A stretch of 64,000 bases of DNA, taken from contig JBBTCT010000022.1 in NCBI GenBank assembly GCA_038060895.1, forward strand, positions 229,301-293,300, read 5' to 3'. The position numbers were made by a program, and so were the translations under genes. How positions within the stretch are numbered: position 1 is the first letter of the stretch; each line of letters begins with the position of its first letter. The DNA is from Planctomycetota bacterium (GTDB lineage Bacteria; Planctomycetota; MHYJ01; WSZJ01). This document shows positions 10,661 through 32,379 of the stretch, in pieces. Under the pieces are notes generated by a model. The model was not told where the DNA came from, searched no databases, and saw only the letters and a list, made by a program, of their open reading frames with translations.

Positions 10661-12556
10661 TTGCAGACATCCATCAGCGGGGAAGCCGGCGATCCGCGCC
10701 GGGCGCTGGATTCAGGGGAAGCGGCGGTGACAGAGCAAGAGAATCCGGGCCGGTGCCGGAACTTCGTGAACGCCTGCCGTGAACGGCGGTCGGTGAAGGT
10801 CCTCGCCGCGGGGGTGTTCCTCCTCGCGGCCGCGTGGGTCGTGCAGATCGCCTCACAGCCCGAGGGCCCGCGCTTCCGCGAAGGCCTCGCTCTCTACGCG
10901 ACTCGCTTCTGGCCGCTTCTGGGAAGCGCCGCCGTGCTCTTCGCCGTGTGGGTCGCGCTGTGGGCCGCGACGCACCGCGCGAAGCTCTCGGCGGTCCTGC
11001 TCCTCGTGCTGTGGCTGCCGCCTGCGATCGCCAACGCGGCGAAGCTGGCGAGCCTCGACCTCCCGCTGATGCCGCTGGACGCGTACCGCACGGGGGACAT
11101 GCTGTCGATTTTTCACGCGGACCTCGTGCGGCCGGGGGGGTGGCTGAAGCTGTCGCTCCTGGTCGCGCTCACGGCGCCGCTCGTCATGGCATTCGCGGTG
11201 ATGCCGTCGCCGAAGACGCGGCCGCGCGTCCGCATCGCCGCCGGCGTGGCGGCCCTCGCGTTCCTGGGCTCGCTCTTTCTCCCGGCGACGAACGTCTTCG
11301 CGCAGCTCTCGGGACCGTTCACGCGCTACAGCTGGGACAGCCGCGGCACCCACGACCAGAACGGATTCGTCGTGTTTTTCGCCATGAACTGCCGGTACGT
11401 GAGGGTCGAAGAGCCGCGCGGCTACTCGGAGGAAGCGGTCGCGCGCATCATCCGCGAGCTGCCGCCGTCCACTGCGAAGACGAGCGGCCTCCGCCCGAAC
11501 GTCATCGTCGTCCTGAGCGAGTCGTTCAGCGACGTGACGCGCATCCCGGGCGTCGAATTCGAAACCGACCCGCTCCCGACCCTCCACGAACTCCAGCGCG
11601 ACTTCGGCCGCCTCGACCTCGTCAGCCCCGTCTACGCCGGCATCACGTGCAACGCCGAGCTCGAGATCCTCACCGGATTCAACATGCGCTTCTTCCCCGA
11701 ACCCTCCGCCGCCTGGGTCGATTCGATCCGCCGCCCGGTGCCGTCTCTCGCTTCCATCCTCCGCGGCCACGGATATCGCGCGATCTCGCTTCACGCCGCC
11801 GGCGGGTTCCACAACGACGCGCAGGTGCAGCCGCTTCTCGGTTTCGAAAAGTGCATTCCCGGAAGCGACTGGGTCAACCGCGACGCGATCGGCTGGCTCG
11901 TGACGGACGAAGCGGTGACGAAGGAGGTCATCCGCGTTTCGCGCGAGCTGCCGCGGCCGTGGTTCGTGTGCGTGAACACCATCGAGGGGCACGCGCCCTA
12001 CGACGGCAAGTACCCGGACCCGAAGTGCGGGATTCGCTTTACGAGGCCGCTCTCGGAGAAGTCGCGTGAGATTCTCGAAGGGTACGCGTACGGACTGAAC
12101 CGAGCCGACCGCGCGCTGCGCGCGCTCATCGACGGGTACCGCGACTCGCCCGAGCCCACGCTCATCCTGTTCTACGGCGACCACCTTCCCGACCTCGGCG
12201 AGAACTTCCTCGCCTGGAGCGAAACCGGTTTCCTCCCGCCCGGACAGGGAAGCTCCTCCCTCGCCATGCGCACCGTCCCCGCCGCGATCTGGAACAACTA
12301 CGGGAAGCGGCTTCCCGTGCTCAACGGTCCCGTCGGCATGTCGCGAGTCCTGCCGCTTCTCCTCGACGCGCTCGAGTTGCCGAAGCCGGCGCACGTGCGC
12401 GTCGTCGAGCAGGTGGGCGCCCGCTGGCCGGTCGTGAGCACCGCGGGATGCTTTGACGCCAGCGGGACCGGCGCGGACGCGGATCTCGCCGATTACTCCC
12501 TCATGCAGTACGACCTGCTGTTCGGCAAGCAGCACTTCCTGCAGGGCGGGCGCTGA
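10661..12556 (+). CDS. membrane-anchored sulfatase/phosphoglycerol-transferase (LtaS/MdoB-like) family protein
   Basis: Five N-terminal TM helices, then VVLSESFSD ... TCNAE alkaline-phosphatase-superfamily core; TTG start after GGAGG. Confidence 0.7.
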   Translation: MQTSISGEAGDPRRALDSGEAAVTEQENPGRCRNFVNACRERRSVKVLAAGVFLLAAAWVVQIASQPEGPRFREGLALYATRFWPLLGSAAVLFAVWVALWAATHRAKLSAVLLLVLWLPPAIANAAKLASLDLPLMPLDAYRTGDMLSIFHADLVRPGGWLKLSLLVALTAPLVMAFAVMPSPKTRPRVRIAAGVAALAFLGSLFLPATNVFAQLSGPFTRYSWDSRGTHDQNGFVVFFAMNCRYVRVEEPRGYSEEAVARIIRELPPSTAKTSGLRPNVIVVLSESFSDVTRIPGVEFETDPLPTLHELQRDFGRLDLVSPVYAGITCNAELEILTGFNMRFFPEPSAAWVDSIRRPVPSLASILRGHGYRAISLHAAGGFHNDAQVQPLLGFEKCIPGSDWVNRDAIGWLVTDEAVTKEVIRVSRELPRPWFVCVNTIEGHAPYDGKYPDPKCGIRFTRPLSEKSREILEGYAYGLNRADRALRALIDGYRDSPEPTLILFYGDHLPDLGENFLAWSETGFLPPGQGSSSLAMRTVPAAIWNNYGKRLPVLNGPVGMSRVLPLLLDALELPKPAHVRVVEQVGARWPVVSTAGCFDASGTGADADLADYSLMQYDLLFGKQHFLQGGR

Positions 12557-17793: not shown

Positions 17794-19158
17794 ATGCGCA
17801 TCACACTGCTGCTCCTGTTCCTGACCTCCACCGCGTTCGCCGATCGCTGGGGGGCATACGTGGAAAACCGCACGGTGTCCCCCAACGGAAAACACTACGT
17901 CGTCGCCAGAAGCCCCGAGTTCATGAAGCTCTCCTTCCAGATCTGCCGCCGCCGCGACGGTGTCGCGCCCCTTCTCCCGGCCGAGAATCCCGATCCCATC
18001 GATCGCGATTCCGAGGACAAGCTGCTGGCGGAAGGGCAGCTCGACTGGTGCCCGATTGCGATCCGGGTGCTGGACTCGGAGCCCTCGGCGGTGCTGTTCG
18101 AGAAGCACGGCGGAGTCGGGCGCGGAAACTCGCTGGCGCTGGTGGACGAGAAGGGACAGACGCGGTGGACGGTGCAGCTGGACGACCTCTTCACGGCGCA
18201 GGAGATCGAAAAGTTCATGCGCACGGTGTCGTCGATCTGGTGGTCGCAGGGGTGGTGGATTGACGAAAAGCGCGGAAAGGTCGTGGTCGTCGCGACCGGG
18301 GACGCGCTTCGCGAGGTTGACCTCAAGGACGGCAAGGTTTCGACGCCGCCGGCGAAGGTGCTGCTCCTGCGCGTGGAGGAAGGACCGGTGGCGGACCGGT
18401 GCCTGGCGCTTGAGGTGATGTCGCGGATACTGCCGGAGGGGATGACGCCGTGGGTCACGACGGTGGCGCAGGATGAGAAACAGCCGGTTGCGGTGCGGCT
18501 GCGCGCCGCGATTGCGTCGAAAAAGGCGGGTGAGGATCCGAGGGCGGGAGATCTTTTCCTGGCGGCGATCCCGAAGGGACAGCCGATCGACGAGCGGCGG
18601 TACGCAATCGGGCATCTCGGGGAGATTCTCGGTGAGAAGGCGATCCCTCACCTGCGTGAAGCGATGCGCGGGACTGCCGACGGGGCCTGGGGCTCGGCGC
18701 AGGAGGGTCTGGCGGCGTTCGGGGAGCACGCGGTGCCCGTGCTGATCGAGATGATGAAGGAAGTCAAGGAGACGCCGGACTACCGTGGAGGCGCGGCGCA
18801 CGTGCTGGCGAAGATCGGGGCGAGGTCGTCGGTGCCGGCGCTGGTCGAGACGATTTCGGACCCGGTTGAATACGTTGCGAATGCCGCGGCAAACGCGGCG
18901 ATCGCGATCGGGGCGCCGGATCTGGAGGAGAAGCTCGCCGCGATTCTGCTGAAGGGATCGACGCAGGACTCGCGCCTGGCCGGGTACTTCGAGGATCACC
19001 CGGGCGAGCGGGCGGTGGAAGCGCTCGTCGCGGCGCTAGGGCGGACGAAGCCGGATACGTACGACCGGCGGAGGGTGCTGCAAACGCTGAGGAAAATTAC
19101 GGGGAAGGATTTCGGTGAAGAGGCGGAGGATTGGAAGGCGGGGTTGAAAGGGAGGTAA
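17794..19158 (+). CDS. secreted protein with C-terminal HEAT repeats
   Basis: Signal peptide MRITLLLLFLTSTAFA; HEAT-like repeats in C-terminal half. Confidence 0.6.
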   Translation: MRITLLLLFLTSTAFADRWGAYVENRTVSPNGKHYVVARSPEFMKLSFQICRRRDGVAPLLPAENPDPIDRDSEDKLLAEGQLDWCPIAIRVLDSEPSAVLFEKHGGVGRGNSLALVDEKGQTRWTVQLDDLFTAQEIEKFMRTVSSIWWSQGWWIDEKRGKVVVVATGDALREVDLKDGKVSTPPAKVLLLRVEEGPVADRCLALEVMSRILPEGMTPWVTTVAQDEKQPVAVRLRAAIASKKAGEDPRAGDLFLAAIPKGQPIDERRYAIGHLGEILGEKAIPHLREAMRGTADGAWGSAQEGLAAFGEHAVPVLIEMMKEVKETPDYRGGAAHVLAKIGARSSVPALVETISDPVEYVANAAANAAIAIGAPDLEEKLAAILLKGSTQDSRLAGYFEDHPGERAVEALVAALGRTKPDTYDRRRVLQTLRKITGKDFGEEAEDWKAGLKGR

Positions 19159-19273
19159 CGACGGCGGAAGGAAGCTGTCCTCGCGGCGCCATTCCTCTCA
19201 GGGCGGTGCCATTTCCCATTCCCTCATGCCGGGTAGGAGGGAAAGGACAAGACGGGCGGCTGAATTGGCCTGG

Positions 19274-21091
19274 TTACTTCGCTCCCAACGTCCTCGCCCG
19301 AACAAGGTAAACCCAGACCTCCCGCCCCTTCGCCCCGTTCCTTGTGACCGCCGAGGCCACGAACGCTCTCCCGTCCTGCAGATGCGCGTCGCATCCCAGC
19401 GACACGACCTCGCAGGTCGGCGTCTGCACGGCGCCCCCTGTCTCGGACTCGGTCTCCAGTGCCTCCGCCATCGAGGCTTCGGCCAGACCCGACTGAAGCT
19501 TCACCTGCAGCCGTCCCTCGGTGGCCTGGAGGACGCCGGCGTGGAGAAGGAAGCCGTCGTTCAGCGAATCGATGACGGGATCCCAGGCCTTGGCGCCCCA
19601 GGCGATTTCCACGTCGTGCTCCGCGACGAAATCGGCGTGGCGGCCGCGAAGCGAATGGAAAGGACTCCCGGTGCGGCCGAGCGCGGACGACTGGGCGACG
19701 AGGCGCGCGGTCCCTTTCTGCACGAGCCCGAGGATGTCGCCGAAAAGCGCGTCGGGGAGCCCGCCCGCCCGCTCCAGGACGTCGCGGCGGGCGAGCCACT
19801 CGGACTCGGGGAACGCGAGAAGCCACGACTCGGCCGCGAGGTTCGCGCCAAGGCGCAACTCCAGGTCGGTCAGCGTGCGCCGGATCTTGTCCTGCACTTC
19901 CGGCGGCGCGTGCACGACGAGGTCGTCGCCGATGATGGCGTAGCGGCAGCCGTCTTCGCTCCAGGTTTCTTCGCCGGTGCCGGCCTTGATCCGCTCGTCC
20001 AGTTCGTCGAGGTCCAGGCAGGTCGGATCGGGACCCGGGCCACATCGGATTCCCCCTCCGTTCTCGGGCGGATCGTTCAGCCCCAGATGGGGGGGCCTGC
20101 GATCGAACCAGGGGAGGCGCAGCAGAGCGCCGATGCTGTAGGCACGGAAGACCTCCGCGTTTCCCGCCCGCTCGGCGACGGCGTCGGAAGCGCCCTCGAC
20201 GCGTGCGCGCAGGAGGACGGCCGTGGTCCAGCCCGGAGTGAAGGGGCGGTAATCGGTCGCAGCGAGGAGGAGGGTCCGGCCCGGCTGAAGCGCGACGTAG
20301 GTGCGGATTTCCGTGGAATCCATGCGCGGAAGTTCGAGGCGTCCGCCGGACGCCGCCGGGAGTTTGAAATCGGCCAGCTCGGCCAGGCGCGCGGTCTGGA
20401 TCAGGAGCTCGAGGTGCAACAGGTCCTCGCCCGCCGAAAAATGCGGCCGCATCTCCAGGACCGCACCTTCCTGAAGTTCGTCCATGATCGGGTCGGCGAT
20501 CGCAGACTGCTGCGCAATCTCGATGTCGAAATCTCTCACATAGGTCTTCCGCCGGAGCGACGACGCAACCGCGTAGCGCCCCCCGCCCCCGCGGGCGACC
20601 AGCCGGTGCGCCACCCGGCCGCGCGCCTTGTCAGCCGCCGCGGCCCGAAGCCCCGCCGCCGCCGCTTCGTCCAGCAATCCCGGCGCAAGCCCGTCCGCAA
20701 CCCCGGGCGCCAATTCCACCATCTCCATCTCCACCACGATCGTCCGCGCCGCCCGCTTTTCGAGCAGCTCGAGCGCTGCGGCAATCGACTGAAGCACTTC
20801 CGGCCCCGCCGTCACGCGCAGCGTCCCGTTGGCGTACTCGAGCGTGTCCACGCCGCTGTCCCACGCGCCGGCATTCACGGTCTGGCCGAGGAGAAGCGCG
20901 ATGCTGTCTCCGGTGCCCTCCGTCTCGGGGGCCGCGCCCACCGGGGGCTCGTAAACGACAAAGCCGATCCGCGGCCCGCGCTTTTCGGGACGAGGGTCCG
21001 TCAGGGAGCGCAGATCCCACGTGCGGCGCTCCTGCGCGGAAGCGGCCGTTGCGAAGGCGAGGACGGCGAGGATGGCGATTGAGACCCGCAT
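19274..21091 (-). CDS. secreted hypothetical protein, paralog B of tandem pair (internal two-fold repeat)
   Basis: Real start MRVSIAILAVLAFATAASA inside the longer track ORF; start overlaps upstream stop as TGATG. Confidence 0.55.
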   Translation of the reverse strand: MRVSIAILAVLAFATAASAQERRTWDLRSLTDPRPEKRGPRIGFVVYEPPVGAAPETEGTGDSIALLLGQTVNAGAWDSGVDTLEYANGTLRVTAGPEVLQSIAAALELLEKRAARTIVVEMEMVELAPGVADGLAPGLLDEAAAAGLRAAAADKARGRVAHRLVARGGGGRYAVASSLRRKTYVRDFDIEIAQQSAIADPIMDELQEGAVLEMRPHFSAGEDLLHLELLIQTARLAELADFKLPAASGGRLELPRMDSTEIRTYVALQPGRTLLLAATDYRPFTPGWTTAVLLRARVEGASDAVAERAGNAEVFRAYSIGALLRLPWFDRRPPHLGLNDPPENGGGIRCGPGPDPTCLDLDELDERIKAGTGEETWSEDGCRYAIIGDDLVVHAPPEVQDKIRRTLTDLELRLGANLAAESWLLAFPESEWLARRDVLERAGGLPDALFGDILGLVQKGTARLVAQSSALGRTGSPFHSLRGRHADFVAEHDVEIAWGAKAWDPVIDSLNDGFLLHAGVLQATEGRLQVKLQSGLAEASMAEALETESETGGAVQTPTCEVVSLGCDAHLQDGRAFVASAVTRNGAKGREVWVYLVRARTLGAK

Positions 21092-22899
21092 CAGCGCACC
21101 TCCGGAAAGCGGACCCGGATGAGGAGAAGGAGCGTTTCGGCGGGGCCTTCGCGTCGCGCCTCCGTCACCGCCGTCCACTCGCCGGCCTTGACGGTCGAGT
21201 CCGTCCGGATTTCGAGCAGGTCGATCGTGGTCCGGTGGATGTCGCCGCCGTGCTCCGCCCCGGTTCCAAATGCTGCGATTTCCGAACGCCACCCGAACTG
21301 GCCCTGGAGTTCCACCCGCGCGCGCCCGCCAGCGTCGGCCGCAAAGGGCCTCACGTCAAGCAGGAGCCCTTCGCGCAGGACGTCGTTGACCGGGTCCGTC
21401 GCCGCCGCTTCCTGCGCAATCTCGACGTCGCGGTCGCGCACGAAGAGCGACTCGGCGCCCGCGAACGCGTGGACGCGCTGGCCGGTGAGCCCGAGAGCCG
21501 TCGCGCCTGCGACCACGCGCGCACGGTCGCCCTTGCGCGCCGCCGCGAGAACGTCCGCCGCCGGGAGGTCGCCGCGCTCCCTGCCCTCGAGGGCCACCAC
21601 GACCGCGTCCACCGCGACCCGCTTCAGCCGGAGTTCGGCCATTCCCTTGAGCGCCGCTTCCGTCGCTTCCAGGATCCCCTGCGGTGCGACGGCCATGATG
21701 CGGTCGTGCCTGAAGCGCAGTTCGCGGCCTTCCACCGACCAGGCGTCCTCCCCGCCGGCCGACTGGCGGAGCAGCGCCCCGAGAGTGTCGTCGTCGAGCC
21801 CGGGATTGCGCGGGTCTTCGATGAAGATGACGCCGCCCTGCTGTTCGTCCCAGTCCGAGAGGTCCAGCCGCTGCCCGGGGAAATCCGTCACGTTCCATTG
21901 GAGGGTGCCGGCCTCGAGGAAGCGCATCTTGAGATCGTCGAGGCCCGCCGCGAGATCGCCGAGGGGCTCTTCGACGCGCTTGGCGCGGACCAGCGCCACG
22001 AGCGTCCAGCCGTTCTCGATGCCTTCGACGCCGCCGGGGACGAGCAGGACGGTGCGCCCCGAAGGGCACGGCCACGTCCCGGCCGCGAACCAGGCCGCGC
22101 GCGAGGGGAGCTGGATCTTTCCCTCGGGTTTCGCCTTCGCGTCGAATTCGAGCACCGTGCCCGGGCGGGCGCACTGGAAGCGGTACTCCAGGAGGACCGT
22201 CGCGCCGTCGGGGGCGAGCACCGGCCGCACGTCGAGCACGGTCCCATCCAGCACTTTCTGCACGAACGGGTCGGCGACCGTGGCCGCCTGCGCAATTTCG
22301 ATGTCGTAGTCCACCACCAGTTGCCGCTCGCGCACGTCGGCCGCGTGAAACCGAAGCCCCGGCGCGCCGCCCGATCGCAGCACCGCCACTGTCCGCCCGC
22401 GCGTCCCGCCCGCCGCCGCTTCCCGCAACGACTGCTCCTGCGCATCCGTCACGACGCCCGCTTCGAGCCCGGCCGTTTCAAGCACCCCCGGCGCCAGCAG
22501 CATGACCTCCGCATCCACCACCACCCGGCGCGCGCCGATCCGCGCGAGCACGTTCAGGGCCGCGACGATCTTCTCCTGGGCCTGCTTCGTCTGCTTGACC
22601 GTCATCCACCCGTCGCCGGCGATGTCGAGCGACGCGTCCCCCGCTTCCCACGACTCCGGCTCGACCATCCGCTGGATCGCCCAGGTCAGCGTCTCGGCGT
22701 CGAAGGCGGCCACTTCCTCGTACTCCTCGCCGTTCTCAACGGCCGAAGTATCCGGAATGGTTTTCAGGCTCAGCCTCGGTCCCGGCTTCGAACTGCCCGT
22801 AGCCCGGAGCGCGCGGACGTCGTGCGTGCGCGTCACAAAGCCAGAGTCCTCGGCCCAGGCAAGTCCCGCGGCGAGGAAGAGGACGGCGATCGGTCGCAT
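21091..22899 (-). CDS. secreted hypothetical protein, paralog A of tandem pair (internal two-fold repeat)
   Basis: Signal peptide MRPIAVLFLAAGLAWA; shares D(Y/F)DIEIAQ ... DP ... VRP module with paralog B. Confidence 0.55.
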   Translation of the reverse strand: MRPIAVLFLAAGLAWAEDSGFVTRTHDVRALRATGSSKPGPRLSLKTIPDTSAVENGEEYEEVAAFDAETLTWAIQRMVEPESWEAGDASLDIAGDGWMTVKQTKQAQEKIVAALNVLARIGARRVVVDAEVMLLAPGVLETAGLEAGVVTDAQEQSLREAAAGGTRGRTVAVLRSGGAPGLRFHAADVRERQLVVDYDIEIAQAATVADPFVQKVLDGTVLDVRPVLAPDGATVLLEYRFQCARPGTVLEFDAKAKPEGKIQLPSRAAWFAAGTWPCPSGRTVLLVPGGVEGIENGWTLVALVRAKRVEEPLGDLAAGLDDLKMRFLEAGTLQWNVTDFPGQRLDLSDWDEQQGGVIFIEDPRNPGLDDDTLGALLRQSAGGEDAWSVEGRELRFRHDRIMAVAPQGILEATEAALKGMAELRLKRVAVDAVVVALEGRERGDLPAADVLAAARKGDRARVVAGATALGLTGQRVHAFAGAESLFVRDRDVEIAQEAAATDPVNDVLREGLLLDVRPFAADAGGRARVELQGQFGWRSEIAAFGTGAEHGGDIHRTTIDLLEIRTDSTVKAGEWTAVTEARREGPAETLLLLIRVRFPEVR

Positions 22900-23229
22900 G
22901 AAGCGGTCTCCCGGGTGAATTGGCAGGGCGTCCCCCGGTGCATGAGACGGCCCGACGGGGGTGCGGGTCAAGCGCATTTCTGAAGTTCTGGGCTGGCATG
23001 GGCCGGCATGAGCTGGCGTTGGCTTAGTTCAGCAGGAAGACCAAGACCCGTACAGAGGGTGGGCTGAAACGCCAGTGACTCGGGGCCGGCCAGGGGACTA
23101 TACTCTGGTCGGGGGAGATTTTTCCGAGTGGACCGCTGCTTTGCGCTGAGATCGCTGGTGCGGGAGGGAGAAGTAATGAGCGACCTGCTCTGCGTTGGAC
23201 TTTCGAAACGCTCCGCCCCCTCTCGTGTG

Positions 23230-23253
23230 CAAGCAAGCAAGCAAGCAAGCAAG
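23230..23253. repeat. (CAAG)6 tetranucleotide microsatellite
   Basis: gcaagcaagcaagcaagcaagcaagg inside a small RBS-preceded ORF (23176-23346). Confidence 0.7.
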
Positions 23254-23364
23254 GTAACCCACCTCTCAGCGCTGTTTGCGCGCCGCCGAAAGTCGAGATG
23301 CGGAAGACCGCATGGACGCCAGATGTCGCTGTGCCTCCCAGTCTGAAGGTTTCAATGCCAAGTT

Positions 23365-24924
23365 TTGCCTGGTGCCTACGAGAGGAAATCGCCCATGGAA
23401 CGATTTGAGGCCGCACGTCGCGCACGCGCAGTTCTGCAAAATCTGGTCATCGCGGCGGCTCCGGCTGGTCAAATCCTGAATGCCACGCTTCGCGAGTGCC
23501 TCCTCCTGACTGGGGCGCGAACCGCGCTCTTCATTGGCGCCGCCGAGGTCCCAGAGCACCTTCGAAGCGTTCCCATGACCTTCGATGGACCGGGAAAGTG
23601 GCCGCCGCTTTCACCGAAACTGCTCGAAACGGTCATGCGTACGGCGAAGCCCTGGGTTCCCGTGGCAACGCCCGCGGATGGAAATGGCACTCCACCCCAC
23701 GTCTCCGAAGTGCTGTGCCTGGGCGATCGTTTCATGGGGGTCGCAGGGTTCATGCCCTGCTCGTTGGAAACTCTCGGTGAAGCGGGGCGTGAACTGCTCA
23801 CAGAGCTCCTACAGTCCATCGCCGAAGCTCTCTCCGCGGCCGTGTACCAGACGGCAATCGCCCGATTGGAGTCGGACCTGCGGCTTGCGAGAGTTGGCAA
23901 TGCCCTCACGCCGCTACCTCTCGTCGGCGGACCGACGAAGCTGCAGTCAAAGCGGCTGGTCGGCAATTCATCCCAGATGCGCGATTTGGACGGACGGATC
24001 GATCGTGCAGCCGCCACCGATGCAACGGTCCTGATCCAGGGGGAAACAGGAACGGGGAAGGAACTTGTCGCCCAGGAAATTCACGCCCGTTCGCCGCGGC
24101 GGCGGGGCCCGTTCGTCGATCAGCACATGGGAGCCTTGCCCGACGACCTGATCGAAGCGGTCATCATGGGGTACGTCAAGGACATCCACTCGCAAGCCCA
24201 CAAAGACAAGCCCGGCCAGTTCGAGCTAGCCGACAAGGGCACCTACTTCATGGACGAGGTCGGGCTGACCACCCTGATCGTGCAGGAGAAATTTCTGCGT
24301 GTTCTCCAGGAGCGAAAGGTCCGCCGCATCGGGTCGGAAGTGTCGTTCGATTTCGACACGCGCATCATTGCGGCGAGCAATCGCGATCTGCAGGAACTCG
24401 TCCGTGAAGGAAAAATGCGTGAGGACTTTTTCTACCGGCTCAAGGTCGTGACCATTCCCATCCCCCCGCTGCGTCACCATCTCGAGGACTTGCCGGCACT
24501 GTTCGAGTATTTCACCGAGCGCCTCGCCTGCAAGTGGAGCCTGCCCGCGCTTCGCGACCACAAATTCGATTCCGCCTGGGCCGCTCTCCTCGGGGGATGG
24601 TCGTGGCCCGGAAACGTTCGGGAACTTGAAAACACCGTTGAGGAGGTCGTAACGAATTCGGGAGGCGCGCCAAAGCTCGAGGAACTGGAAAAGATCATGG
24701 ACGCGAAGCGGAATGCGGCCGGGATCGAGGAGGCAGCGTCCGGCGAGCGGATTTCGCACGCCAAGCGGATGGAGAATGCCGAAGCGAACTTCCTGCGAAG
24801 CGACCTGCGCGAGAGCAACGGCAGCGTCCGCAAGGCGGCAGAGAAGAACGGCCTCTCGGAGCCGACCATGCGAAGGAAGGCAACCCGGTATCACCTCTCG
24901 ACTTCGTCAGGCGCTCAGAAATGA
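23365..24924 (+). CDS. GAF-domain AAA+ bacterial enhancer-binding-protein-type regulator (sigma-54-activator family, GAFTGA motif absent) with Fis-type HTH
   Basis: Walker A GETGTGKE, Walker B GTYFMDEVG, R-finger region, C-terminal HTH; GAFTGA replaced by KDIHSQAHKDKPG. Confidence 0.8.
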   Translation: MPGAYERKSPMERFEAARRARAVLQNLVIAAAPAGQILNATLRECLLLTGARTALFIGAAEVPEHLRSVPMTFDGPGKWPPLSPKLLETVMRTAKPWVPVATPADGNGTPPHVSEVLCLGDRFMGVAGFMPCSLETLGEAGRELLTELLQSIAEALSAAVYQTAIARLESDLRLARVGNALTPLPLVGGPTKLQSKRLVGNSSQMRDLDGRIDRAAATDATVLIQGETGTGKELVAQEIHARSPRRRGPFVDQHMGALPDDLIEAVIMGYVKDIHSQAHKDKPGQFELADKGTYFMDEVGLTTLIVQEKFLRVLQERKVRRIGSEVSFDFDTRIIAASNRDLQELVREGKMREDFFYRLKVVTIPIPPLRHHLEDLPALFEYFTERLACKWSLPALRDHKFDSAWAALLGGWSWPGNVRELENTVEEVVTNSGGAPKLEELEKIMDAKRNAAGIEEAASGERISHAKRMENAEANFLRSDLRESNGSVRKAAEKNGLSEPTMRRKATRYHLSTSSGAQK

Positions 24925-25109
24925 CGAAGCGCCGCTCATCTTTGACGAAACGCACTTCGTAAGTCGAAGCCCTGTGGTGCGCGAAACTTGTGTCGCGTGC
25001 CGCACCGGCCGGTTCCGTTGAATTCGTCAAGAGTGAGCGAGTGCCGGATCCTTTTCCGGATCCCGCCCCGGGGAATGTGAGTGGCCCGCGGCTTGCGATA
25101 AAGATTCGC

Positions 25110-25637
25110 ATGGGAGCCTGCTGCGGCGGATGCGATGAGGGCGCGAGTTGCGCTGGCAAACAGCCTGCGGCGGTTTTGCTGCCTCCGGACCTGATCATCC
25201 CGGGACCCGACCCGGATCGCACGGGAGTGCTTGAGCTGGAAGAAGTTCCGGATGAGACGACGAGCGATGAATCGGTCCCGCTGATCACGAAGTCGCTCGG
25301 CCCCACCCGGCCAGTCGCACTTAACACCCGTCTCGTCCTCACGGACGGCGGAACGACTGTCAGCGAAGCGCTGCACGTCCGGGGTTGCAACTCGGGTAGC
25401 GTCGACCTTGTCGTCTTCCTTCTGAATTCGATCTCGACCATAGACGCGGTCCTGGAGGGCGGAATCGACGGAGAAAACTACCGCCGGATTTCCTCGACGC
25501 GATTCAGCGCAGCCGGGTTTGCGAGGTTCCGATTTCGCCGGGTGGGTTACCGCTTTCTCCGAGTGTATTACAGCGCTTCCGGCTCGGCCGGTGGCGTCGC
25601 TGTCCTGACCACAACGATCAACGGTTCATCCAACTGA
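25110..25637 (+). CDS. hypothetical protein, Cys-rich N-terminus (MGACCGGCDEGASCAG); C-terminal beta-rich domain paralogous to the next gene
   Basis: Alternative upstream start at 24990; shares the IDG(E/Q)N(Y/W)R block with 25657-25980. Confidence 0.4.
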   Translation: MGACCGGCDEGASCAGKQPAAVLLPPDLIIPGPDPDRTGVLELEEVPDETTSDESVPLITKSLGPTRPVALNTRLVLTDGGTTVSEALHVRGCNSGSVDLVVFLLNSISTIDAVLEGGIDGENYRRISSTRFSAAGFARFRFRRVGYRFLRVYYSASGSAGGVAVLTTTINGSSN

Positions 25638-25656
25638 CCCCCAAAGGAGGACGTTC

Positions 25657-25980
25657 ATGGCCTATGCCAAGCTCTTTACAAACTTGTCCGTCGTCAACGG
25701 AGTTTCGCAGTACTCGCAACCGTTCAGTATGGCGGGGAACAACGCGTTCCGGTTCGGAGTGACGGTCTTCAGCAACTCCGCGACGAGTCTGACCTGTACG
25801 CCCCAAGGTTCCATCGACGGACAAAACTGGCGGGACCTCACCGCCGCAACCGGGCTCGTCGTCGGGTGGGCCTCGTTCACGCAAGGGAGCATCACCGACC
25901 TGATGGTGAGACTCGTCTGCACGGTCGTAGGAACCGGGACGATCGTCCTGGCCGCTGATGTGTACACGAGCCAGCAGTAG
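25657..25980 (+). CDS. small beta-rich hypothetical protein
   Basis: Strong RBS AAGGAGG 7 nt upstream of ATG. Confidence 0.6.
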   Translation: MAYAKLFTNLSVVNGVSQYSQPFSMAGNNAFRFGVTVFSNSATSLTCTPQGSIDGQNWRDLTAATGLVVGWASFTQGSITDLMVRLVCTVVGTGTIVLAADVYTSQQ

Positions 25981-26100
25981 GAACACGAAGAGTCGGAGCA
26001 GTCGCAACCCTCGGACCAGTCGGGGCGGAGGAGAGCCGTCGTCCGGCTCTCTTCCGTCCGGCTTCCGAAATAAAAACATCGTCGTTACAAAGAGGTCGAA

Positions 26101-26667
26101 ATGCCCGAACTTCCGCTGACCTACGTCTACGAGCCGCCGAACTGGCTTGCGCGCGCGAACGCCTACGGCTCCTGCGTCGGCGGCCGGAGATTCTCCGTCG
26201 CGCATCAGACACCCGGGACGACCGTGACGGGGCAGACCTCCTTCGTGGCCACGACTCCCACGTTCCTGATCAACCAGGCGAGCGCCGCGCACCGCGTCGT
26301 GCTCTCGAACTTCGCGCTCTGCCAGATCGGGACGCCCGCGGGAGGGACGATCCACGTGGCGCTGGCGATCGACTCGTCGGATCGATACTCCTCAGGAGGG
26401 ACGTCGATCACCCCGCAGGCGACCGCGATGCCCAGTGCGCTCACCGCGGGCTTCAGTTTCCGGTTCAACCCGACCGCCGCCGCCGCCAGCGCCGTCCGGA
26501 TCCTGAACGAGTGGACCCAGCCCGCGTGGGCCGGTTCGATTTTCAATCCCGACCTGCATGACGGCGTCCTGATCGGATACACGGGTTCGATTCTGATCTA
26601 TACGTGGGCGGCCACGACGGCGCCGACGTGGATCATCGGCGGCTTCGACGTCCTGGAGGACGAGTAG
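26101..26667 (+). CDS. hypothetical protein (Thr/Ser/Ala-rich, beta-rich)
   Basis: RBS AAGAGG upstream; abuts the next gene. Confidence 0.55.
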   Translation: MPELPLTYVYEPPNWLARANAYGSCVGGRRFSVAHQTPGTTVTGQTSFVATTPTFLINQASAAHRVVLSNFALCQIGTPAGGTIHVALAIDSSDRYSSGGTSITPQATAMPSALTAGFSFRFNPTAAAASAVRILNEWTQPAWAGSIFNPDLHDGVLIGYTGSILIYTWAATTAPTWIIGGFDVLEDE

Positions 26668-26668
26668 G

Positions 26669-27553
26669 ATGCCGACGATCCGAGACCTGAGCCAGGGCGG
26701 CGTCCAGCCTCACGCCTCGACGCACATGTCGGGAGGTTCCGACGCGATCAAGCTCGACGAGCTCGCCGCGCCTACGGACGTCACGACGCTGAATGTCTCC
26801 ACTTCGGCTCACGGGCTGACGCCGAAGCTCCCGAACGATGCGACCAAATACCTCGACGGGACTGGCGCGTTCAGCGTCCCTGCGGGAAGCGGCGGCTCCG
26901 GCTCGTACCTCGGGACCACCGTGAAGACTTCCGGCACGACGTTCACGACCGGAGCCTCCACCAACACGATCCGTGTACGCCTTCAGGCCGGCGGCGGTGG
27001 AGGCGGCGGCGCTGCGTCGAATCTATTCAGCCCCGCCGGCGGCGGTGGCGCGGGCGGATACGCGGAAAAGACATTCGCCGTGAGCCCCTCGACCGCCTAC
27101 ACCTGCGCGATCGGCGCCGCAGGAGCCGGGGGCTCGGCAGGAAACAACAACGGCTCGGCCGGAGGGAACTCCACTTTCGCAGTCGGCGGAACGACCGTCA
27201 CAGCTTTCGGCGGCAATGGCGGAATCGGAACTGCCGGCGGAAGCGGCTCATCCGCGATCTTCGTTCTGGGGGGCGCTGCCGCATCCGTCTCCACGAGCGC
27301 CGACCTGAACGCAAGCGGCTCGCCGGGAGGGTTCGGGACAGGAAGTGGCGGCATTGGTGGTAGCGGCGCCTCGGGAGCCGGAGGTTCGTGCCTCTTCGGC
27401 GCCGGCGGAAACAGCCTCAATACCCAGAGCGGCGGCGCCGCGGGCGTCGGTTACGGCGCGGGCGGAAGCGGCGGCTGTTCGCTTTCCAGCGGCGGAAACG
27501 TTGCCGGCGGCGCAGGACTCGCCGGGGTGATCGTCGTCGAGGAGTTCTCGTAG
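26669..27553 (+). CDS. Gly-rich protein with phage tail-fibre-like N-terminal motif
   Basis: N-term HASTHMSGGSDAIKLDEL ... HGLTPKLPNDATKYLDGTGAF, then long GGxGG repeats as in phage minor tail/tail-fibre proteins. Confidence 0.55.
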   Translation: MPTIRDLSQGGVQPHASTHMSGGSDAIKLDELAAPTDVTTLNVSTSAHGLTPKLPNDATKYLDGTGAFSVPAGSGGSGSYLGTTVKTSGTTFTTGASTNTIRVRLQAGGGGGGGAASNLFSPAGGGGAGGYAEKTFAVSPSTAYTCAIGAAGAGGSAGNNNGSAGGNSTFAVGGTTVTAFGGNGGIGTAGGSGSSAIFVLGGAAASVSTSADLNASGSPGGFGTGSGGIGGSGASGAGGSCLFGAGGNSLNTQSGGAAGVGYGAGGSGGCSLSSGGNVAGGAGLAGVIVVEEFS

Positions 27554-27574
27554 CAAGATCGAGGAGATGAAGTC

Positions 27575-28015
27575 GTGAGCGGAAACGGCTGTTCCTTCTG
27601 GGCCCAGAACGTCTCCCCGGAGACGAGCTGGCCGATTTCCTCCGAAGCGCCGGCGGGGATGGACGGAATGTCCTGGTCGAGCGAGTGCGTCTGGGACGCG
27701 ATGTCCTTCCCGCAGGGAGTCCTGCAGGTCTCCGCGCCCGTCGAGATCCGGAACCCAAACAACACCGTGATCTTCTCCATCGTGATCATCGGCCAGAGCA
27801 GCGGGTCTCCTCAGCTCGCCATCGTATTCTCCGGCGCCAATTGTCCGGAGGGTCCCTACACCACGCTGAGCGGGCCGACCAACATCACGACCTTGGGCCT
27901 GCAGTTCCTAGGCGCCGTGACCGGAATCAGGTTCCCCTACGTCCGGGCAGAAGTCATGTCGTCGAACGGGAGTGCGGTGGCGGGGAGCGGGTGCTTTTGT
28001 GTCTCGGAAGCCTAA
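27575..28015 (+). CDS. hypothetical protein (Cys-containing, beta-rich)
   Basis: GTG start after GAGGAG RBS. Confidence 0.45.
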   Translation: MSGNGCSFWAQNVSPETSWPISSEAPAGMDGMSWSSECVWDAMSFPQGVLQVSAPVEIRNPNNTVIFSIVIIGQSSGSPQLAIVFSGANCPEGPYTTLSGPTNITTLGLQFLGAVTGIRFPYVRAEVMSSNGSAVAGSGCFCVSEA

Positions 28016-28173
28016 AGCCAGCGTTCGCTCGACAAACCAACCGTCCAAAGCGCCATCGGTGTAGCACATAACGAGAAGAGGTTTCGCGCGACTGTCTCTC
28101 ATCAAAGTCAAGTCAGAGCTCTCCAGCGCCTGACGGGTCTTCGAGTCGATTTTCCCTAGAGAAGGAGGTACCG

Positions 28174-28656
28174 ATGCCAGATCCAGAGATTGTGTCAATT
28201 GACGAAATCTTGCGTGCTAATGAGCTAAGGGATCCGCTGACCGGGGTCAGAACCGGCGGCACCGTGCTACACCCTGGCACTGGCGTGAAACTTCGGAAAG
28301 ATCGGCCTTCAGGATCCATTGGAATCAACTTGGACACAGGTCAATTGGAGATGCATGACTGGGGGCCGACCGTTGCTGGGCCCAGTACTGATTTCTCAAA
28401 GTTACCTGAACGAATCCGACTCTTTGGGGGAGAAACTGGCGACGGGCCCAGGGTGGGTCGTGACCCAAAGGAGTCTGAGGACCGTGGCGTGGAGATGCTG
28501 CTTCCGGAAGGCGTGAGAAAATTCGTCGCAGGAGATGCGCTGAAGGCAGGTATTGTCTCCATTTCCTTCGAGTTCGGAGGACCTTGGGGCCTTACCGTCA
28601 CGTTTGGAAGGCCGCCTGAGCCGGCTGGGGTCAGACGGAAGGACCTGGAGAAGTGA
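28174..28656 (+). CDS. hypothetical protein
   Basis: Strong RBS AAGGAGG 5 nt before ATG; lower-GC DNA. Confidence 0.55.
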   Translation: MPDPEIVSIDEILRANELRDPLTGVRTGGTVLHPGTGVKLRKDRPSGSIGINLDTGQLEMHDWGPTVAGPSTDFSKLPERIRLFGGETGDGPRVGRDPKESEDRGVEMLLPEGVRKFVAGDALKAGIVSISFEFGGPWGLTVTFGRPPEPAGVRRKDLEK

Positions 28657-28760
28657 CGCAATGCGAAACACGATCCATTTCTCGAAGTCGAGGACTGTCT
28701 GGGATGGGATGACTTCCCAGGAGCTAACCGCGCCTCCGTCGAAATCTCAGGAGCACGTCA

Positions 28761-29909
28761 ATGCGAACAGAAGCTTCTAGCGAACTGACTCATTCGTCAA
28801 GGTGGTGTCATCCAGTTACATTTGCACTTGCCTTGTTTCTTGGATGCGCCGCGGGTCAGGGCACCAACGAATCGAAGCCAGAAGAACCCAGGATTCACAA
28901 TTCGGTGGAATTGAGGGACTCGCAAGGGAGGATCCGGCTCTCGATCTGTCTGGATCAAGATGAGTGTCCTCAAATCATGCTATTTGATCCCGCCGGACAC
29001 CCTCGCTCGCGAATTGGACTAAGTTCGGAATTCGAACCCGTAATTCGTATGACGGGTTCGAACGGCGAGGATGCGGTTTCGCTTGGTTTGCGCGAGGATT
29101 CCCCCCAACTCCGGCTGGAGTGTGGCGAGGGACGAAGTGGTATTCGGATCCAGGCTGAAGCAACGCGAGGACCGGAGTTGACGTTGTCGGATGGCGATGG
29201 TTTGGAGCGCGCCCGACTGGCAATTGATCGTGGCGCCCCACAACTTTCGATGTTGGACCCTGGACTCAAGCCTCGCCTGTACCTTGGAACCGAGGTCTCG
29301 ACACCGGATAATTACGGACTCCGCGTCACCTCAGACGACGGCCTTTCCCGCGCGGAGGTTGGCACGACAAAAAACTCGCCGGCGTTCATCCTCGTTTCTG
29401 GAGGCGCTGGCGAATGGTCAGCGCTTGCAATGAGCCGTGGCGGGCACCCGCTGCTAAGCTTTGTCGATTCGACCGACATCGAACGAATTCGAGTCAGCTT
29501 GACGCCTCAACAGGAGTCCGAAGTAGCGCTTTGTAGCGCCGAAGGTCAGATTTCCGTTCTGGCAAGATGTCCGAAGTCGGGTTTCGGGTTGGTCAACTTG
29601 TCCGATGGCGATTCACCGACAGCCGTGTTTCTGGGGAAAGGTTCGTCCGGTGATGTCTTGGCCGGGATCGTTGATGCGGCGGGGTGTAGACGAGCGAGCT
29701 TGTCGCTAACCCCGGAGGACCGAGCTTACGCCTCCGTACAGGATTCGACCGCCTCCTCAGCCTTTCTGACGAACGATGGCAAAGGACTTTGCAAACTCGA
29801 GCTGAATCGAAAGGGAAAGACCAGACTGCTCGCGGGTTTTGACAAGACTGATACAGCATCCTTCATGTCGCTTGATTCGGAGGAAATCGAAACTTGGCGA
29901 TCAAAGTAG
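28761..29909 (+). CDS. repeat-containing lipoprotein
   Basis: Lipobox ALFLGCAAG; about eight roughly 24-aa repeats of the form P-x-L-x-L-x-D-x-G. Confidence 0.55.
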   Translation: MRTEASSELTHSSRWCHPVTFALALFLGCAAGQGTNESKPEEPRIHNSVELRDSQGRIRLSICLDQDECPQIMLFDPAGHPRSRIGLSSEFEPVIRMTGSNGEDAVSLGLREDSPQLRLECGEGRSGIRIQAEATRGPELTLSDGDGLERARLAIDRGAPQLSMLDPGLKPRLYLGTEVSTPDNYGLRVTSDDGLSRAEVGTTKNSPAFILVSGGAGEWSALAMSRGGHPLLSFVDSTDIERIRVSLTPQQESEVALCSAEGQISVLARCPKSGFGLVNLSDGDSPTAVFLGKGSSGDVLAGIVDAAGCRRASLSLTPEDRAYASVQDSTASSAFLTNDGKGLCKLELNRKGKTRLLAGFDKTDTASFMSLDSEEIETWRSK

Positions 29910-30203
29910 ACTGCGGGGCTGCCATTCTTCTACAGACAGGCTTCAGTAGATGCGGTCGGGCGTCTCGATGGGGTTGAGACGTCGGGTGTAGACGGTTTCG
30001 CGACGTTGTAGACGTCGTAGGGCGACTCTTCCGTTCGGACGGAGCCCAACACCTGGGCTTGCGGGACACCCCGAACCTCCGAACGCAAATCGCTTCGTCC
30101 ACATCCAATTTCCCCAGGAGTCTCATGCCCGCCTTGCTCCGCCTCCCCCGCCAATGCTAAAGTCGCCCTTCCGGGTAACCCAGGGCCCGGTTGAGGGCCT
30201 CTC

Positions 30204-30725
30204 ATGGACGCAACGAAACCGGAAGTCGCCGCTCCAGCACCGCCCGCGCCGCTGGCCGACCCGCGCGTGGACAAGCTCCTTGAAAAGATCGGGATCCTTG
30301 AGCAGCTTTTCGTGAAGCGCATCAAGGACGACCAGGCGCACGCGGCGGCGTACAACACGCTGTACCAGGACATGTCGAAGTACCGGGACGACGCGTTCCG
30401 GGGGGCGCAGAAGTCGCTTCTCAAGGGTCTAGTGCTCATTTACGACACGATGAAGCGGTCCATTTCGGGGATCGGGGACGGGACGGTGCGCGAGATGGTG
30501 AACCTGCACGTCGAGGAACTGCTCGAGCTGCTTCATCGCCACGACGTCGAGCGGATGCCGGACACGCTGGGAAAATTCGACCGGAACGTGCAGCAGGCGC
30601 TGGGGACGGAGCCGGCGGCGACGGCGGAAGAAGATCAGACTGTTGCGCGAGTGGTGCGTGACGGGTTCAAATGGGGGACTCAGGTGTTGAGGCCGCAGGA
30701 AGTAGTGATTAAGGTAAAAAAGTAG
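30204..30725 (+). CDS. grpE: nucleotide exchange factor GrpE
   Basis: C-terminal VVRDGFKWGTQVLRPQEVVIKV matches the GrpE beta-domain. Confidence 0.8.
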   Translation: MDATKPEVAAPAPPAPLADPRVDKLLEKIGILEQLFVKRIKDDQAHAAAYNTLYQDMSKYRDDAFRGAQKSLLKGLVLIYDTMKRSISGIGDGTVREMVNLHVEELLELLHRHDVERMPDTLGKFDRNVQQALGTEPAATAEEDQTVARVVRDGFKWGTQVLRPQEVVIKVKK

Positions 30726-30765
30726 TAGGGAGCAGGGGGTAGTGGGTAGTTGGTAGGAAAGGCAA
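30721..30765. repeat. GGGGGTAG(T/G)GGGTAG-type intergenic repeat
   Basis: agggggtagtgggtagttggtagg; related copy in inverted arrangement at 34621-34680. Confidence 0.5.
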
Positions 30766-30788
30766 AGACTCTTAACAGGAGACCGTCC

Positions 30789-32378
30789 ATGGCCGACCAG
30801 AAGACGCCGATGACGTGCGGGATTGACCTGGGCACGACGAACAGCGCCATCGCGTTCATCGACGAGCACGGCAAGGCGCAGGTGATCCAGAACACGGACA
30901 ACGAGCGGATCACGCCCTCGGTCGTGCTGTTCGAGGAGAAGGAAGTCATCGTCGGCAAGATCGCCAAGAACTCGGCGGTGGCAGCGCCGGACCGGGTAGT
31001 GCAGTTCGTGAAGCGGCACATCGGCGAAGAGGGCTGGGTGAAGACGTACTTCGGGACGGAGTACACGCCCGAGACGATCAGCGCGCTGATCCTGAAGCGC
31101 ATCGTGCAGGACGCCGAGAAGGTGAGCGGCGGCAAAGTTGGGAGCGTGGTGATCACGGTTCCGGCGTACTTCAACGAAGTCGAGCGCAAGGCGACGCAGG
31201 ACGCGGGGACGATCGCGGGCCTGAACGTCGTCTCCATCCTCAATGAGCCGACGGCCGCGGCGCTGGCTTACGGGCTGGACCGGCTGGGCGAGAAGAAGCG
31301 CGTCCTGGTCTACGACCTGGGCGGCGGGACGTTCGACGTGACGATCATCGAGATCGACGGCACGAAGATCGACGTGCTGGCGACGGACGGCGAGCGGCGG
31401 CTGGGCGGCATCGACTGGGACGACGAGATCATCAACATGGTCTCCGAGAAGTTCCAGGCGGAGCACGGGATCGACCCGCGCAACGACCTCGAAGCGTGCC
31501 AGGACCTGCGCAACAAGGCGGAAGACGCGAAGATCAGCCTGTCGAAGCTCGAAAAGGTGCGCATCCTCTGCCAGTGCCAGGGCAAGACGACCAAGGTCGA
31601 ACTGACGCGCGAAGATTTCGAGAAGATCACCAAGGGCCTGCTCGACCAGACCGAGACGTACCTCGGGGTCGTGCTCCAGAAGGCGAAGCTCGCCTGGAAG
31701 GACATCGGCACCGTCCTGCTCGTCGGCGGCATGACCCGCATGCCCGCCGTGCAGGGCATGATCCAGCGTGTCACGGGTCTTAAACCCGAAACCGGCATCA
31801 ACCCCGACGAATGCGTCGCGATGGGCGCCGCCTACTACAACGCCGTCCTCGCCCTCCAGGCCAAGCCGTCCGAGGAGCCCGAGCTGGCGCTTCAGGGCGA
31901 AGCGCTGAAGGAGTCGATCGACGAGGAAGTCATGATCCTGCTGCAGGGCGTCGAGGTCACGAACGTGAACTCGCACTCGCTGGGCATCGTGGGCATCCAC
32001 AAGAAGACCGGCAAGCTGGTCGCGTACAAGATGATCCCGAAGAACACGCCGATCCCGGCCGACATCACAAAGCCGTTCGGGACGGAGAAGGAAAACCAGG
32101 TCAGCGTGCAGATCAAGATCGTCGAGGGCGAAGGCGAGACCCCCGAGGATTGCACGGAGATCGGGATGTGCGAGATCAAGGACCTCCCGAAGGGCCACCC
32201 CGCGGGCTCGATCATCGACGTGACCTACTCGTACAGCGTCGACGGCCGACTGCAAGTCACAGGCAAGGACCGCCTGTCCGGCAAGGAGGCCAGGGTCGAG
32301 ATCGTCCGCGCGAGCGGTATGGATGACAAAGAGATCAAGGAGGCGAAGAAGGACGTGGTTGAGATGGAAGTAGGCTAA
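30789..32378 (+). CDS. Hsp70-family chaperone, short form (no C-terminal lid/EEVD)
   Basis: GIDLGTTNS, DLGGGTFD, VLLVGGMTRMP motifs; about 530 aa. Confidence 0.85.
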   Translation: MADQKTPMTCGIDLGTTNSAIAFIDEHGKAQVIQNTDNERITPSVVLFEEKEVIVGKIAKNSAVAAPDRVVQFVKRHIGEEGWVKTYFGTEYTPETISALILKRIVQDAEKVSGGKVGSVVITVPAYFNEVERKATQDAGTIAGLNVVSILNEPTAAALAYGLDRLGEKKRVLVYDLGGGTFDVTIIEIDGTKIDVLATDGERRLGGIDWDDEIINMVSEKFQAEHGIDPRNDLEACQDLRNKAEDAKISLSKLEKVRILCQCQGKTTKVELTREDFEKITKGLLDQTETYLGVVLQKAKLAWKDIGTVLLVGGMTRMPAVQGMIQRVTGLKPETGINPDECVAMGAAYYNAVLALQAKPSEEPELALQGEALKESIDEEVMILLQGVEVTNVNSHSLGIVGIHKKTGKLVAYKMIPKNTPIPADITKPFGTEKENQVSVQIKIVEGEGETPEDCTEIGMCEIKDLPKGHPAGSIIDVTYSYSVDGRLQVTGKDRLSGKEARVEIVRASGMDDKEIKEAKKDVVEMEVG

Positions 32379-32379
32379 G

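Follow-up and report, generated by a model that had tools for sequence, protein, structure and literature searches.

Tandem-module proteins encoded by coupled gene pairs in Planctomycetota are divergent relatives of secretins that appear to lack the beta-lip and the amphipathic helical loop

Two consecutive minus-strand genes, A and B, located in a 64-kb stretch of DNA from a Planctomycetota bacterium (the whole stretch is called the window hereafter), encode proteins that belong, by homology and predicted fold, to the secretin superfamily as divergent members. The secretins, which assemble into gated rings of 12-17 subunits in the outer membrane, serve as giant portals for type II and type III secretion, type IV pili and filamentous phage. 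Each product consists of two modules, and our sequence comparisons and structure models describe each module as a secretin N3-type domain followed by a secretin core. On the same grounds, all the modules are devoid of the beta-lip and of the amphipathic helical loop (AHL), and retain the N3 domain and the long, gate-type hairpins of the core. The two-module architecture defines, as judged from sequence, a large unnamed family, which would be secretin-derived and in which the lip and AHL have been lost and the module duplicated within the gene. In the present clade, this family takes the form of translationally coupled paralog pairs, so that several secretin rules appear to be broken at once.

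The gene pair and its products

Gene A (21091-22899, minus strand) encodes, according to its open reading frame (ORF) and translation, a 602-residue protein, predicted to be exported, with two secretin-like modules. The protein is identical to AAB074_15650 (P0001), a hypothetical protein of an NCBI metagenome-assembled genome (MAG). Gene B (19274-21091, minus strand), which is AAB074_15645, encodes a 605-residue paralog of the same two-module architecture, and the two proteins align over their full length with 31% identity (E 3e-49). A starts at an ATG at 22899, preceded by GGGAGA, and ends with a TGA stop codon at 21093-21091; B starts at the ATG at 21091-21089 and its ORF ends at 19274. The stop codon of A and the start codon of B share one A in a TGATG overlap (21089-21093, minus strand), and the GGAGG Shine-Dalgarno sequence of B (21099-21103, minus strand) is found 7 nucleotides upstream, within the last codons of A. 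An overlap, or a gap of at most 1 nucleotide, is kept at the pair junction in 7 related loci, and in L001, L004, L005, L009, L011, L012 and L013 a GGAG(G) likewise lies among the final codons of the first gene.

Both products begin with what is, by inspection, a signal peptide of the Sec/signal peptidase I type. That of A covers residues 1-16 (22852-22899, minus strand; MRPIAVLFLAAGLAWA followed by ED, with cleavage after AWA) and that of B residues 1-19 (21035-21091, minus strand; MRVSIAILAVLAFATAASA followed by QE, with cleavage after ASA). Both are kept in orthologs, and the layout of n-region, h-region and AXA motif is found in all 16 orthologs and paralogs extracted. The AlphaFold2 model of A has an N-terminal helix at residues 2-18, and inspection reveals no lipobox cysteine in either signal peptide. 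The periplasmic or outer-membrane location proposed in an earlier, sequence-only reading of the window is therefore supported by predicted export signals, and the other basic observations of that reading, namely two minus-strand paralogs of about 600 residues with signal peptides and a TGATG overlap, are confirmed by the ORFs, the sequence and the identity between the two products.

The G+C content at third codon positions (GC3) is 0.86 and 0.81 in the two genes, in a sequence of 66-70% GC, and orthologs with 43-72% identity are found in other MAGs. This GC3 pattern and these orthologs show that A and B are real genes. Two plus-strand antisense ORFs, 19226-21082 (618 residues) and 21049-22983 (644 residues), overlap B and A, respectively. 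Their GC1 of 0.82 and GC3 of 0.74 are the reverse of the pattern of real genes, and they were consequently rejected as genes and considered as high-GC artefacts.

The internal duplication of A and B, already perceived in the sequence-only reading, is found at all levels of comparison. When the N-terminal half is compared with the C-terminal half by single-sequence BLAST, A yields an E of 9e-12 and B one of 4e-9. The values fall to 2.5e-18 and 4.5e-19 with type-specific profiles, and hhalign on the 17-sequence family alignment gives a probability of 99.9% and an E of 1.9e-34 over 285 columns. By these comparisons, each protein is internally duplicated and there are four modules across the pair. 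Module 1 of A (residues 20-310; 21970-22842, minus strand) comprises an N3-like domain and a secretin core without beta-lip or AHL. Module 2 of A (residues 322-602; 21094-21936, minus strand) is supported by hhalign of the halves, by the TPR-secretin profile and by the BfpB match (see below). Module 1 of B covers residues 22-305 (20177-21028, minus strand) and module 2 of B residues 314-605 (19277-20152, minus strand), the latter with a divergent, B-type motif, HDVEIAWGAKAWDP, that is kept among B orthologs.

The signature R-x-VVV...VRP, which had been attributed to all four modules, is exact in the N-terminal modules (RRVVVD 124-129 and DYDIEIAQ 197-204 in A; RTIVVE 116-121 and DFDIEIAQ 187-194 in B) and degenerate in the C-terminal ones. 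In module 2 of A it reads KRVAVD and DRDVEIAQ (489-496). In module 2 of B it is reduced to HDVEIAW (492-498)...WDP, without VRP, and this variant is kept among B orthologs. The most conserved motif of the family, D(F/Y)DIEIAQ..ADP, is carried by the hairpin 184-228 of A. DYDIEIAQ in module 1 of A (22288-22311, minus strand) belongs to the first arm of this long hairpin in the model (strands 184-203 and 206-228), and its counterparts are DRDVEIAQ in module 2 of A (21412-21435), DFDIEIAQ in module 1 of B (20510-20533) and the degenerate HDVEIAW in module 2 of B (19598-19618), all on the minus strand. DYDIEIAQ of A is equivalent to DFDVEIAQ within PF00263 of TPR-secretins. From this position in PF00263 and from published descriptions (PMC6155069), the D(F/Y)DIEIAQ hairpin is probably a GATE1-type hairpin.

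Relationship to secretins

Direct scans gave nothing usable, and the homology of A and B was therefore reached via their relatives. No Pfam match is obtained for either protein even at E<=10, so that both are below the gathering threshold of PF00263, and the only NCBIfam signal is a weak match of B residues 69-127 to the PilN-type secretin TIGR02520 (25 bits, for a cutoff of 288). In contrast to these scans, a word-indexed protein search retrieves 9 full-length relatives of A (P0002, P0003, P0005-P0010; 31-57% identity), a 458-residue partial relative (P0004, 69% identity), and about 40 Planctomycetota proteins of about 870-890 residues bearing both TPR repeats and the Pfam Secretin domain PF00263, called TPR-secretins below.

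TPR-secretins (about 865-890 residues, such as P0011 and P0043) are the closest sequence relatives of A and B, are encoded in the same phylum and the same genomes, and are functionally uncharacterised. They are composed of a helical/TPR N-terminal half, N domains and a full PF00263. BLASTP of A against the PF00263-bearing TPR-secretins gives an E of 2e-14, and BLASTP of B against P0011 an E of 1.4e-15. Residues 20-292 of A are collinear with residues 457-807 of P0043, and the identity reaches 42% over a stretch of 104 residues that holds DFDVEIAQAASIADP...DGVVLDVRP and falls within PF00263 (P0011 residues 674-851). When profiles are compared by hhalign, using 37 sequences for the TPR-secretins, the N-terminal module maps to P0011 456-854 with two deletions (probability 100%, E 8.5e-45), and the C-terminal module is also matched (probability 99.9%, E 4.1e-30). 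The N3-like domain, first barrel strand, helix and core of TPR-secretins are thus collinear with each module of A and B, and the motif DFD(V/I)EIAQxAxIADP...DG.VLDVRP is shared. TPR-secretins differ from A and B in having one module, a helical/TPR N-terminal region of about 450 residues, and both lip and AHL (PF00263 match 2-168), whereas A and B have no TPR match, no N-terminal extension and two truncated cores.

A profile search of PDB sequences gives a single significant match, BfpB (9u5s; E 1.5e-10), the secretin of the type IVb bundle-forming pilus, of the PilN/TcpC class. This best match among solved structures covers the N3/first-strand region and the secretin core, and BfpB 359-485 is matched with module 2 of A. 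BfpB is a lipoprotein with a single module, which forms a homo-17-mer outer-membrane pore in a pilus machine; A and B, in contrast, have two modules, no lipobox, no lip or AHL, and no pilus genes nearby.

The predicted fold is in agreement with these sequence comparisons. From the 17-sequence family alignment, AlphaFold2 predicts A with a pLDDT of 85.6 and a pTM of 0.85, and the top 36 matches of a Foldseek search of the PDB with this model are all secretins, including InvG, BfpB, PulD/GspD, ExeD, PilQ, XcpQ, pIV and RcpA. Their probability is 0.75-1.00 (1.00 for most). The TM-scores lie between 0.2 and 0.38, such low values being expected from the comparison of a monomer containing two modules with the protomers of a ring; BfpB is third in the ranking and has the highest TM-scores among the top matches. 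In the model, an N3-type domain is predicted at residues ~21-122 (beta, alpha, beta-beta, alpha), and the features of a secretin protomer, i.e., an N3-type alpha/beta domain and a two-sheet beta core with long hairpins, are both present. Our assignment of the modules thus relies on the agreement between BLASTP, hhalign, the BfpB match, and AlphaFold2 with Foldseek. A monomeric outer-membrane barrel was rejected, as FadL and TonB-receptor matches in Foldseek only have E values of 0.02-0.09 and probabilities of at most 0.09, and no LolA/BamB-like match was found in the sequence or fold searches.

All these results contradict the previous impression that the module matched no family: TPR-secretins with PF00263, BfpB, the top fold matches and 15 of the 73 family representatives sampled below all point to secretins. 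They also modify the suggestion of a secretin-accessory-like fold, as the module is homologous to secretins themselves (N3-type domain and core) and not to an accessory protein. Homology to secretin domains, which the sequence-only reading gave as an example of what would overturn it, therefore refutes the claim of an unknown fold, but does not settle the function. Indeed, the known function of secretins is not simply transferable to A and B, because they are devoid of beta-lip, AHL, N0 and S domains, and of a linked machine.

Elements missing from the modules

When compared with TPR-secretins by BLASTP and hhalign, every module carries two deletions. The first one, of about 85 residues (P0011 ~577-662), falls after the first barrel strand that follows N3 and before the helix opening PF00263; in the model of A, strand 126-135 runs straight to helix 152-163, with no lip segment. 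In PilQ and other secretins, this interval from N3 to PF00263 is occupied by the beta-lip, which provides outer-membrane-spanning strands (PMC10653833). The second deletion, of about 25-30 residues (P0011 ~808-838), removes the segment holding VPILNKIPIISFFF. In the P0011 model, VPILNKIPIISFFF is a helical loop between the long strands 799-815 and 832-851, while its counterpart in A is a 7-residue turn between strands of 9-10 residues (283-291 and 299-308). Using the published definition of the AHL (PMC6155069, PMC6532946, PMC8134430), we infer that the VPILNKIPIISFFF segment is the AHL. In secretins, nothing but the lip and the AHL is embedded in the outer membrane (PMC9239104, PMC6532946), and these two are also the most conserved elements (PMC6532946, PMC6155069). 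Furthermore, distant two-module members scoring above the Pfam Secretin threshold (P0098, 36.6 bits; P0176, 40.4 bits; P0173, 28.2 bits) match only positions 2 to 116-126 of the 169 positions of the hidden Markov model.

Other elements of secretins were also sought. No match to N0/STN or FecR_C is obtained in A or B with Pfam and NCBIfam, the first module beginning about 20 residues after the signal peptide, and the model of A has no S domain, the last core strand being followed by just 5 residues. Kyte-Doolittle hydropathy, scanned in search of a hydrophobic belt, does not set A and B apart from full secretins. The canonical secretins bearing PF00263 (GspD/PulD, InvG, PilQ, pIV, RcpA) share with A and B the N3 ring-building domain, the double-sheet core with long hairpins, and export by Sec. 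A and B differ from them in lacking N0, beta-lip, AHL, and S domain or pilotin signal, in escaping detection by PF00263, and in having no associated ATPase, platform or pilin genes; furthermore, they are intragenic tandem duplications forming an obligate paralog pair, whereas canonical secretins are homo-oligomers.

A and B might nevertheless form a conventional outer-membrane secretin pore, or be co-assembling subunits of a TPR-secretin pore, for a type II secretion system (T2SS), type IV pilus (T4P) or other machine encoded elsewhere. The clear secretin homology and fold would fit such a role, several TPR-secretins are encoded by the same genomes, and secretin genes may be unlinked from their machines. 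We however regard this role as distinctly unlikely, since A and B have neither beta-lip nor AHL, no N0 domain for an inner-membrane platform, no S domain and no lipobox, and since machine genes are missing within the 64 kb and from every related locus examined: no gene for a secretion ATPase, platform, pilin or pilotin is found in the window or the related loci, and no assembly gene of T2SS, type III secretion system, T4P, Tad or filamentous phage in the 19 double-module loci, window included.

Regarding the TPR-secretins, at least 2 paralogs are encoded close together in several genomes. In L060 (10001-22480) and L061 (10001-22267), two full-length TPR-secretins flank a cluster encoding a TPR protein, a 410-residue protein of unknown nature, MotA/ExbB, ExbD and ExbD. 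These clusters associate TPR-secretins, at the level of gene order, with a motor driven by the proton-motive force instead of a secretion ATPase.

Family size and distribution

When 1.84 billion cluster representatives were searched exhaustively with the family profile (HMMER), 327 proteins, each representing a cluster at 50% identity, were retrieved at E<=1e-30. At E<=1e-10, the number rises to 2109, ordinary secretins included. The best 150 matches comprise 144 new representatives; two modules are found in 133 of these, most of which have 500-700 residues, and a few longer members have additional N-terminal TPR or FecR_C/STN/N0-like domains. Among 73 sampled representatives searched with Pfam at E<=0.01, 15 match PF00263 and 3 match Secretin_N, and no unrelated family recurs. 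The 10 family representatives whose names were looked up are all called 'hypothetical' and nothing else, and a search of the accessible literature found nothing on planctomycete secretins, TPR-secretins, tandem or lip-less secretins, or crateriform structures. Our results would thus provide a superfamily assignment for roughly 327 or more clusters of hypothetical proteins.

In a genome scan using 9 sequences chosen from the 17-sequence alignment, all 53 loci from GTDB species genomes belong to Planctomycetota MAGs. The idea of a lineage-specific module therefore holds at the level of the phylum, within which the family is large (327 clusters at the stricter threshold).

The possibility that A and B are decaying, non-functional remnants of duplicated secretin genes was also considered, as canonical motifs have been lost, both proteins are below the Pfam threshold, and the motif of module 2 of B is degenerate. 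This is highly improbable. Both ORFs are intact with a high GC3. In many MAGs, the orthologs (43-72% identity) are still full-length, and their gene order and coupling have been maintained. Furthermore, the 327 representatives are diverged, 133 of the 144 that were examined have two modules, conservation extends to the divergent B-type motifs, and the predicted fold is confident.

Gene pairs and their neighbourhoods

The close relatives of A and B fall into four orthogroups that make up two conserved pairs, in which A precedes B and C precedes D. They are always found as coupled pairs, and at every junction the stop and start codons overlap or lie no more than 1 nucleotide apart. The A-then-B loci are the window, L001, L004/L007, L009 and L008+L015, the C-then-D loci are L005/L010, L011, L012 and L013, and at least 3 genomes contain both types of pair. 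Across the four orthogroups, the N-terminal modules resemble one another more than they resemble the C-terminal ones, and the intragenic duplication is therefore, on this grouping, older than the gene duplications. In agreement with the intragenic duplication coming first, the distant two-module members in L016, L024, L032, L035 and L037 are single genes, with no second double-module gene adjacent.

Downstream of B in the window, a convergent plus-strand gene (17794-19158) encodes an exported HEAT-repeat protein of 454 residues (Pfam HEAT_2). In L015, B is likewise followed by a convergent gene, which encodes a 76%-identical ortholog. The HEAT protein is a possible partner of A and B. It is weakly similar (E 4e-5) to the HEAT anti-sigma-like protein encoded with C and D. 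C and D are indeed the distal part of an operon conserved in 4 loci (L005 1625-7531; L011 3192-9192; L012 8215-13717; L013 7586-13736), in which they are preceded by genes for an extracytoplasmic function (ECF) sigma factor and for an anti-sigma-like protein that has a zf-HC2 motif at its N-terminus and HEAT repeats at its C-terminus. A thioredoxin-like gene is located divergently upstream of this operon; three of the loci (L011, L012 and L013) also have a pirin gene on the downstream side, which is missing there from L005. The pair of L001 and L004 has a gene for a Ser/Thr kinase-FGE fusion upstream and a hemerythrin gene downstream. Three distant single two-module genes (L024 9878-12989; L032 9929-13016; L047 2-3004) are found directly upstream of rpoN (sigma-54) and of a deoxyhypusine synthase gene, with polyamine genes and a GGDEF gene on the other side of the two-module gene.

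Some of these neighbours could suggest that each protein is a self-contained periplasmic scaffold or sensor, i.e., a closed pseudo-dimer of its two modules, perhaps paired as an A-B heterodimer, which, without forming a ring, takes part in envelope sensing or signalling, for example by binding HEAT proteins or anti-sigma factors. Besides the exported HEAT protein convergent to B in the window and in L015 and the ECF sigma and zf-HC2/HEAT anti-sigma-like genes of the 4 C/D operons, FecR_C/STN-type domains occur in some distant relatives, and the very confident monomer model of A (considered below) would fit a closed structure. However, N3-type domains and secretin cores oligomerise in every characterised secretin, and a barrel or a gate would account better for the conservation of the gate-type hairpin motif. 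In addition, the HEAT neighbour is not universal, since L001 and L004 have the hemerythrin gene in its place, and sharing a transcript with an ECF sigma gene points to regulation rather than to a signalling role. We therefore consider a scaffold or sensor to be unlikely, while keeping it as a serious alternative.

A proposed assembly

The assembly that we tentatively favour, at somewhat less than an even chance, is one in which A and B would co-assemble into a secretin-like gated ring, either periplasmic or dependent on a partner. First, translational coupling, which is seen at the sequence level, would lead to the production of A and B in equal amounts. Both proteins would then be exported to the periplasm, as predicted from their signal peptides. 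In each chain, the two modules would pack side by side, like neighbouring protomers of a ring, as the confident single-chain model suggests; its high pTM is compatible with such a packing, without being proof of it. A and B could next join edge to edge, giving rise to a hetero-oligomeric, double-walled, secretin-like ring or gate, with the N3 domains below and the gate-type hairpins inside. Finally, this assembly would stay in the periplasm or need a separate outer-membrane partner, and would not be a self-sufficient pore.

Two aspects of this proposal have their own support. The formation of a hetero-assembly is supported by the conserved overlap and internal Shine-Dalgarno sequence, by the gene order A-B and C-D, and by the B-specific motifs. 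The periplasmic or partner-dependent state is expected because the membrane-embedding elements of secretins are missing. A possible analogy is provided by outer-membrane polysaccharide export (OPX) proteins without a membrane-spanning part of their own, a family of envelope export whose classes differ in their need for a separate beta-barrel porin (bioRxiv 10.1101/2022.02.11.480155). The fold and family of OPX proteins are unrelated to those of A and B, and a porin partner for A and B would be suggested by analogy.

Several points weigh against a co-assembled ring. The model of A, with its pTM of 0.85, is unusually confident for a secretin, when compared with that of the canonical-type relative P0011 (pTM 0.36), and such a confident monomer model could mean that the two-module fold is self-contained and does not polymerise. 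Side-by-side packing and ring formation are both predicted, with a single-chain model behind the packing. Another surface or a partner could mediate membrane insertion. The labels 'lip' and 'AHL' are likewise provisional, being based on position, on descriptions in the literature and on the low-confidence model of P0011. Finally, A and B are missed by PF00263 and are not recognised by NCBIfam.

If the co-assembled ring nevertheless exists, A/B and C/D could be the first recognised secretin-derived rings made of fused pseudo-protomers and obligate paralog pairs, that is, hetero-oligomers of tandem modules as opposed to a homo-15-mer. Such rings would have given up self-insertion and become a Planctomycetota-specific periplasmic gate or chamber, possibly part of an uncharacterised envelope structure or of an uptake or secretion route with a separate outer-membrane partner. 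This extended view is speculative and rather doubtful at present. The family would in any case offer a natural experiment, both on the role of the secretin core without its membrane anchor and on the evolution of heteromeric or pseudo-symmetric secretin rings. It also bears on the envelope machinery of Planctomycetota, in which the closest full-length secretins adjoin ExbB/ExbD motors instead of secretion ATPases.

Other features of the window

A divergent gene encoding a sigma-54 activator (23365-24924) was examined as a partner of A and rejected. No TGG-N9-TGC sigma-54 element is found in the intergenic region 22900-23365, and synteny with L008 and L001 places the activator within an insertion of about 7 kb between the pair and its ancestral GrpE-Hsp70 neighbours; for these two reasons, the activator is probably not a partner. 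The intergenic region also contains a perfect (GCAA)6.2 repeat (23229-23253; TTGC on the minus strand), located between gene A and the activator gene, which could be a slippage-prone tract.

The segment ~23000-30200 has a lower GC content (0.56-0.61), separates A and B from the GrpE-Hsp70 genes that adjoin the pair in L008, L001 and L004, and looks like an insertion on these sequence features. It also holds several small ORFs without matches, and a gene for a glycine-rich protein (26669-27553) that matches the phage tail-fibre family phrog_863, annotated as tail fiber assembly (E 3e-29). Beyond this segment, GrpE, an Hsp70 of 543 residues and a DnaJ-domain protein of 422 residues are encoded as a triad at 30204-33771, syntenic with the flank of the A/B pair in L001, L004 and L008; they may represent a dedicated chaperone set.

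FGE-sulfatase-domain proteins are encoded in the window at 8314-10608 and 56765-59368, and in L001 at 7059-9911. The one at 56765-59368 is a Ser/Thr kinase-FGE fusion, of the kind also found directly upstream of the A/B pair in L001 and L004, and the one at 8314-10608 is adjoined by a sulfatase gene (10586-12556).

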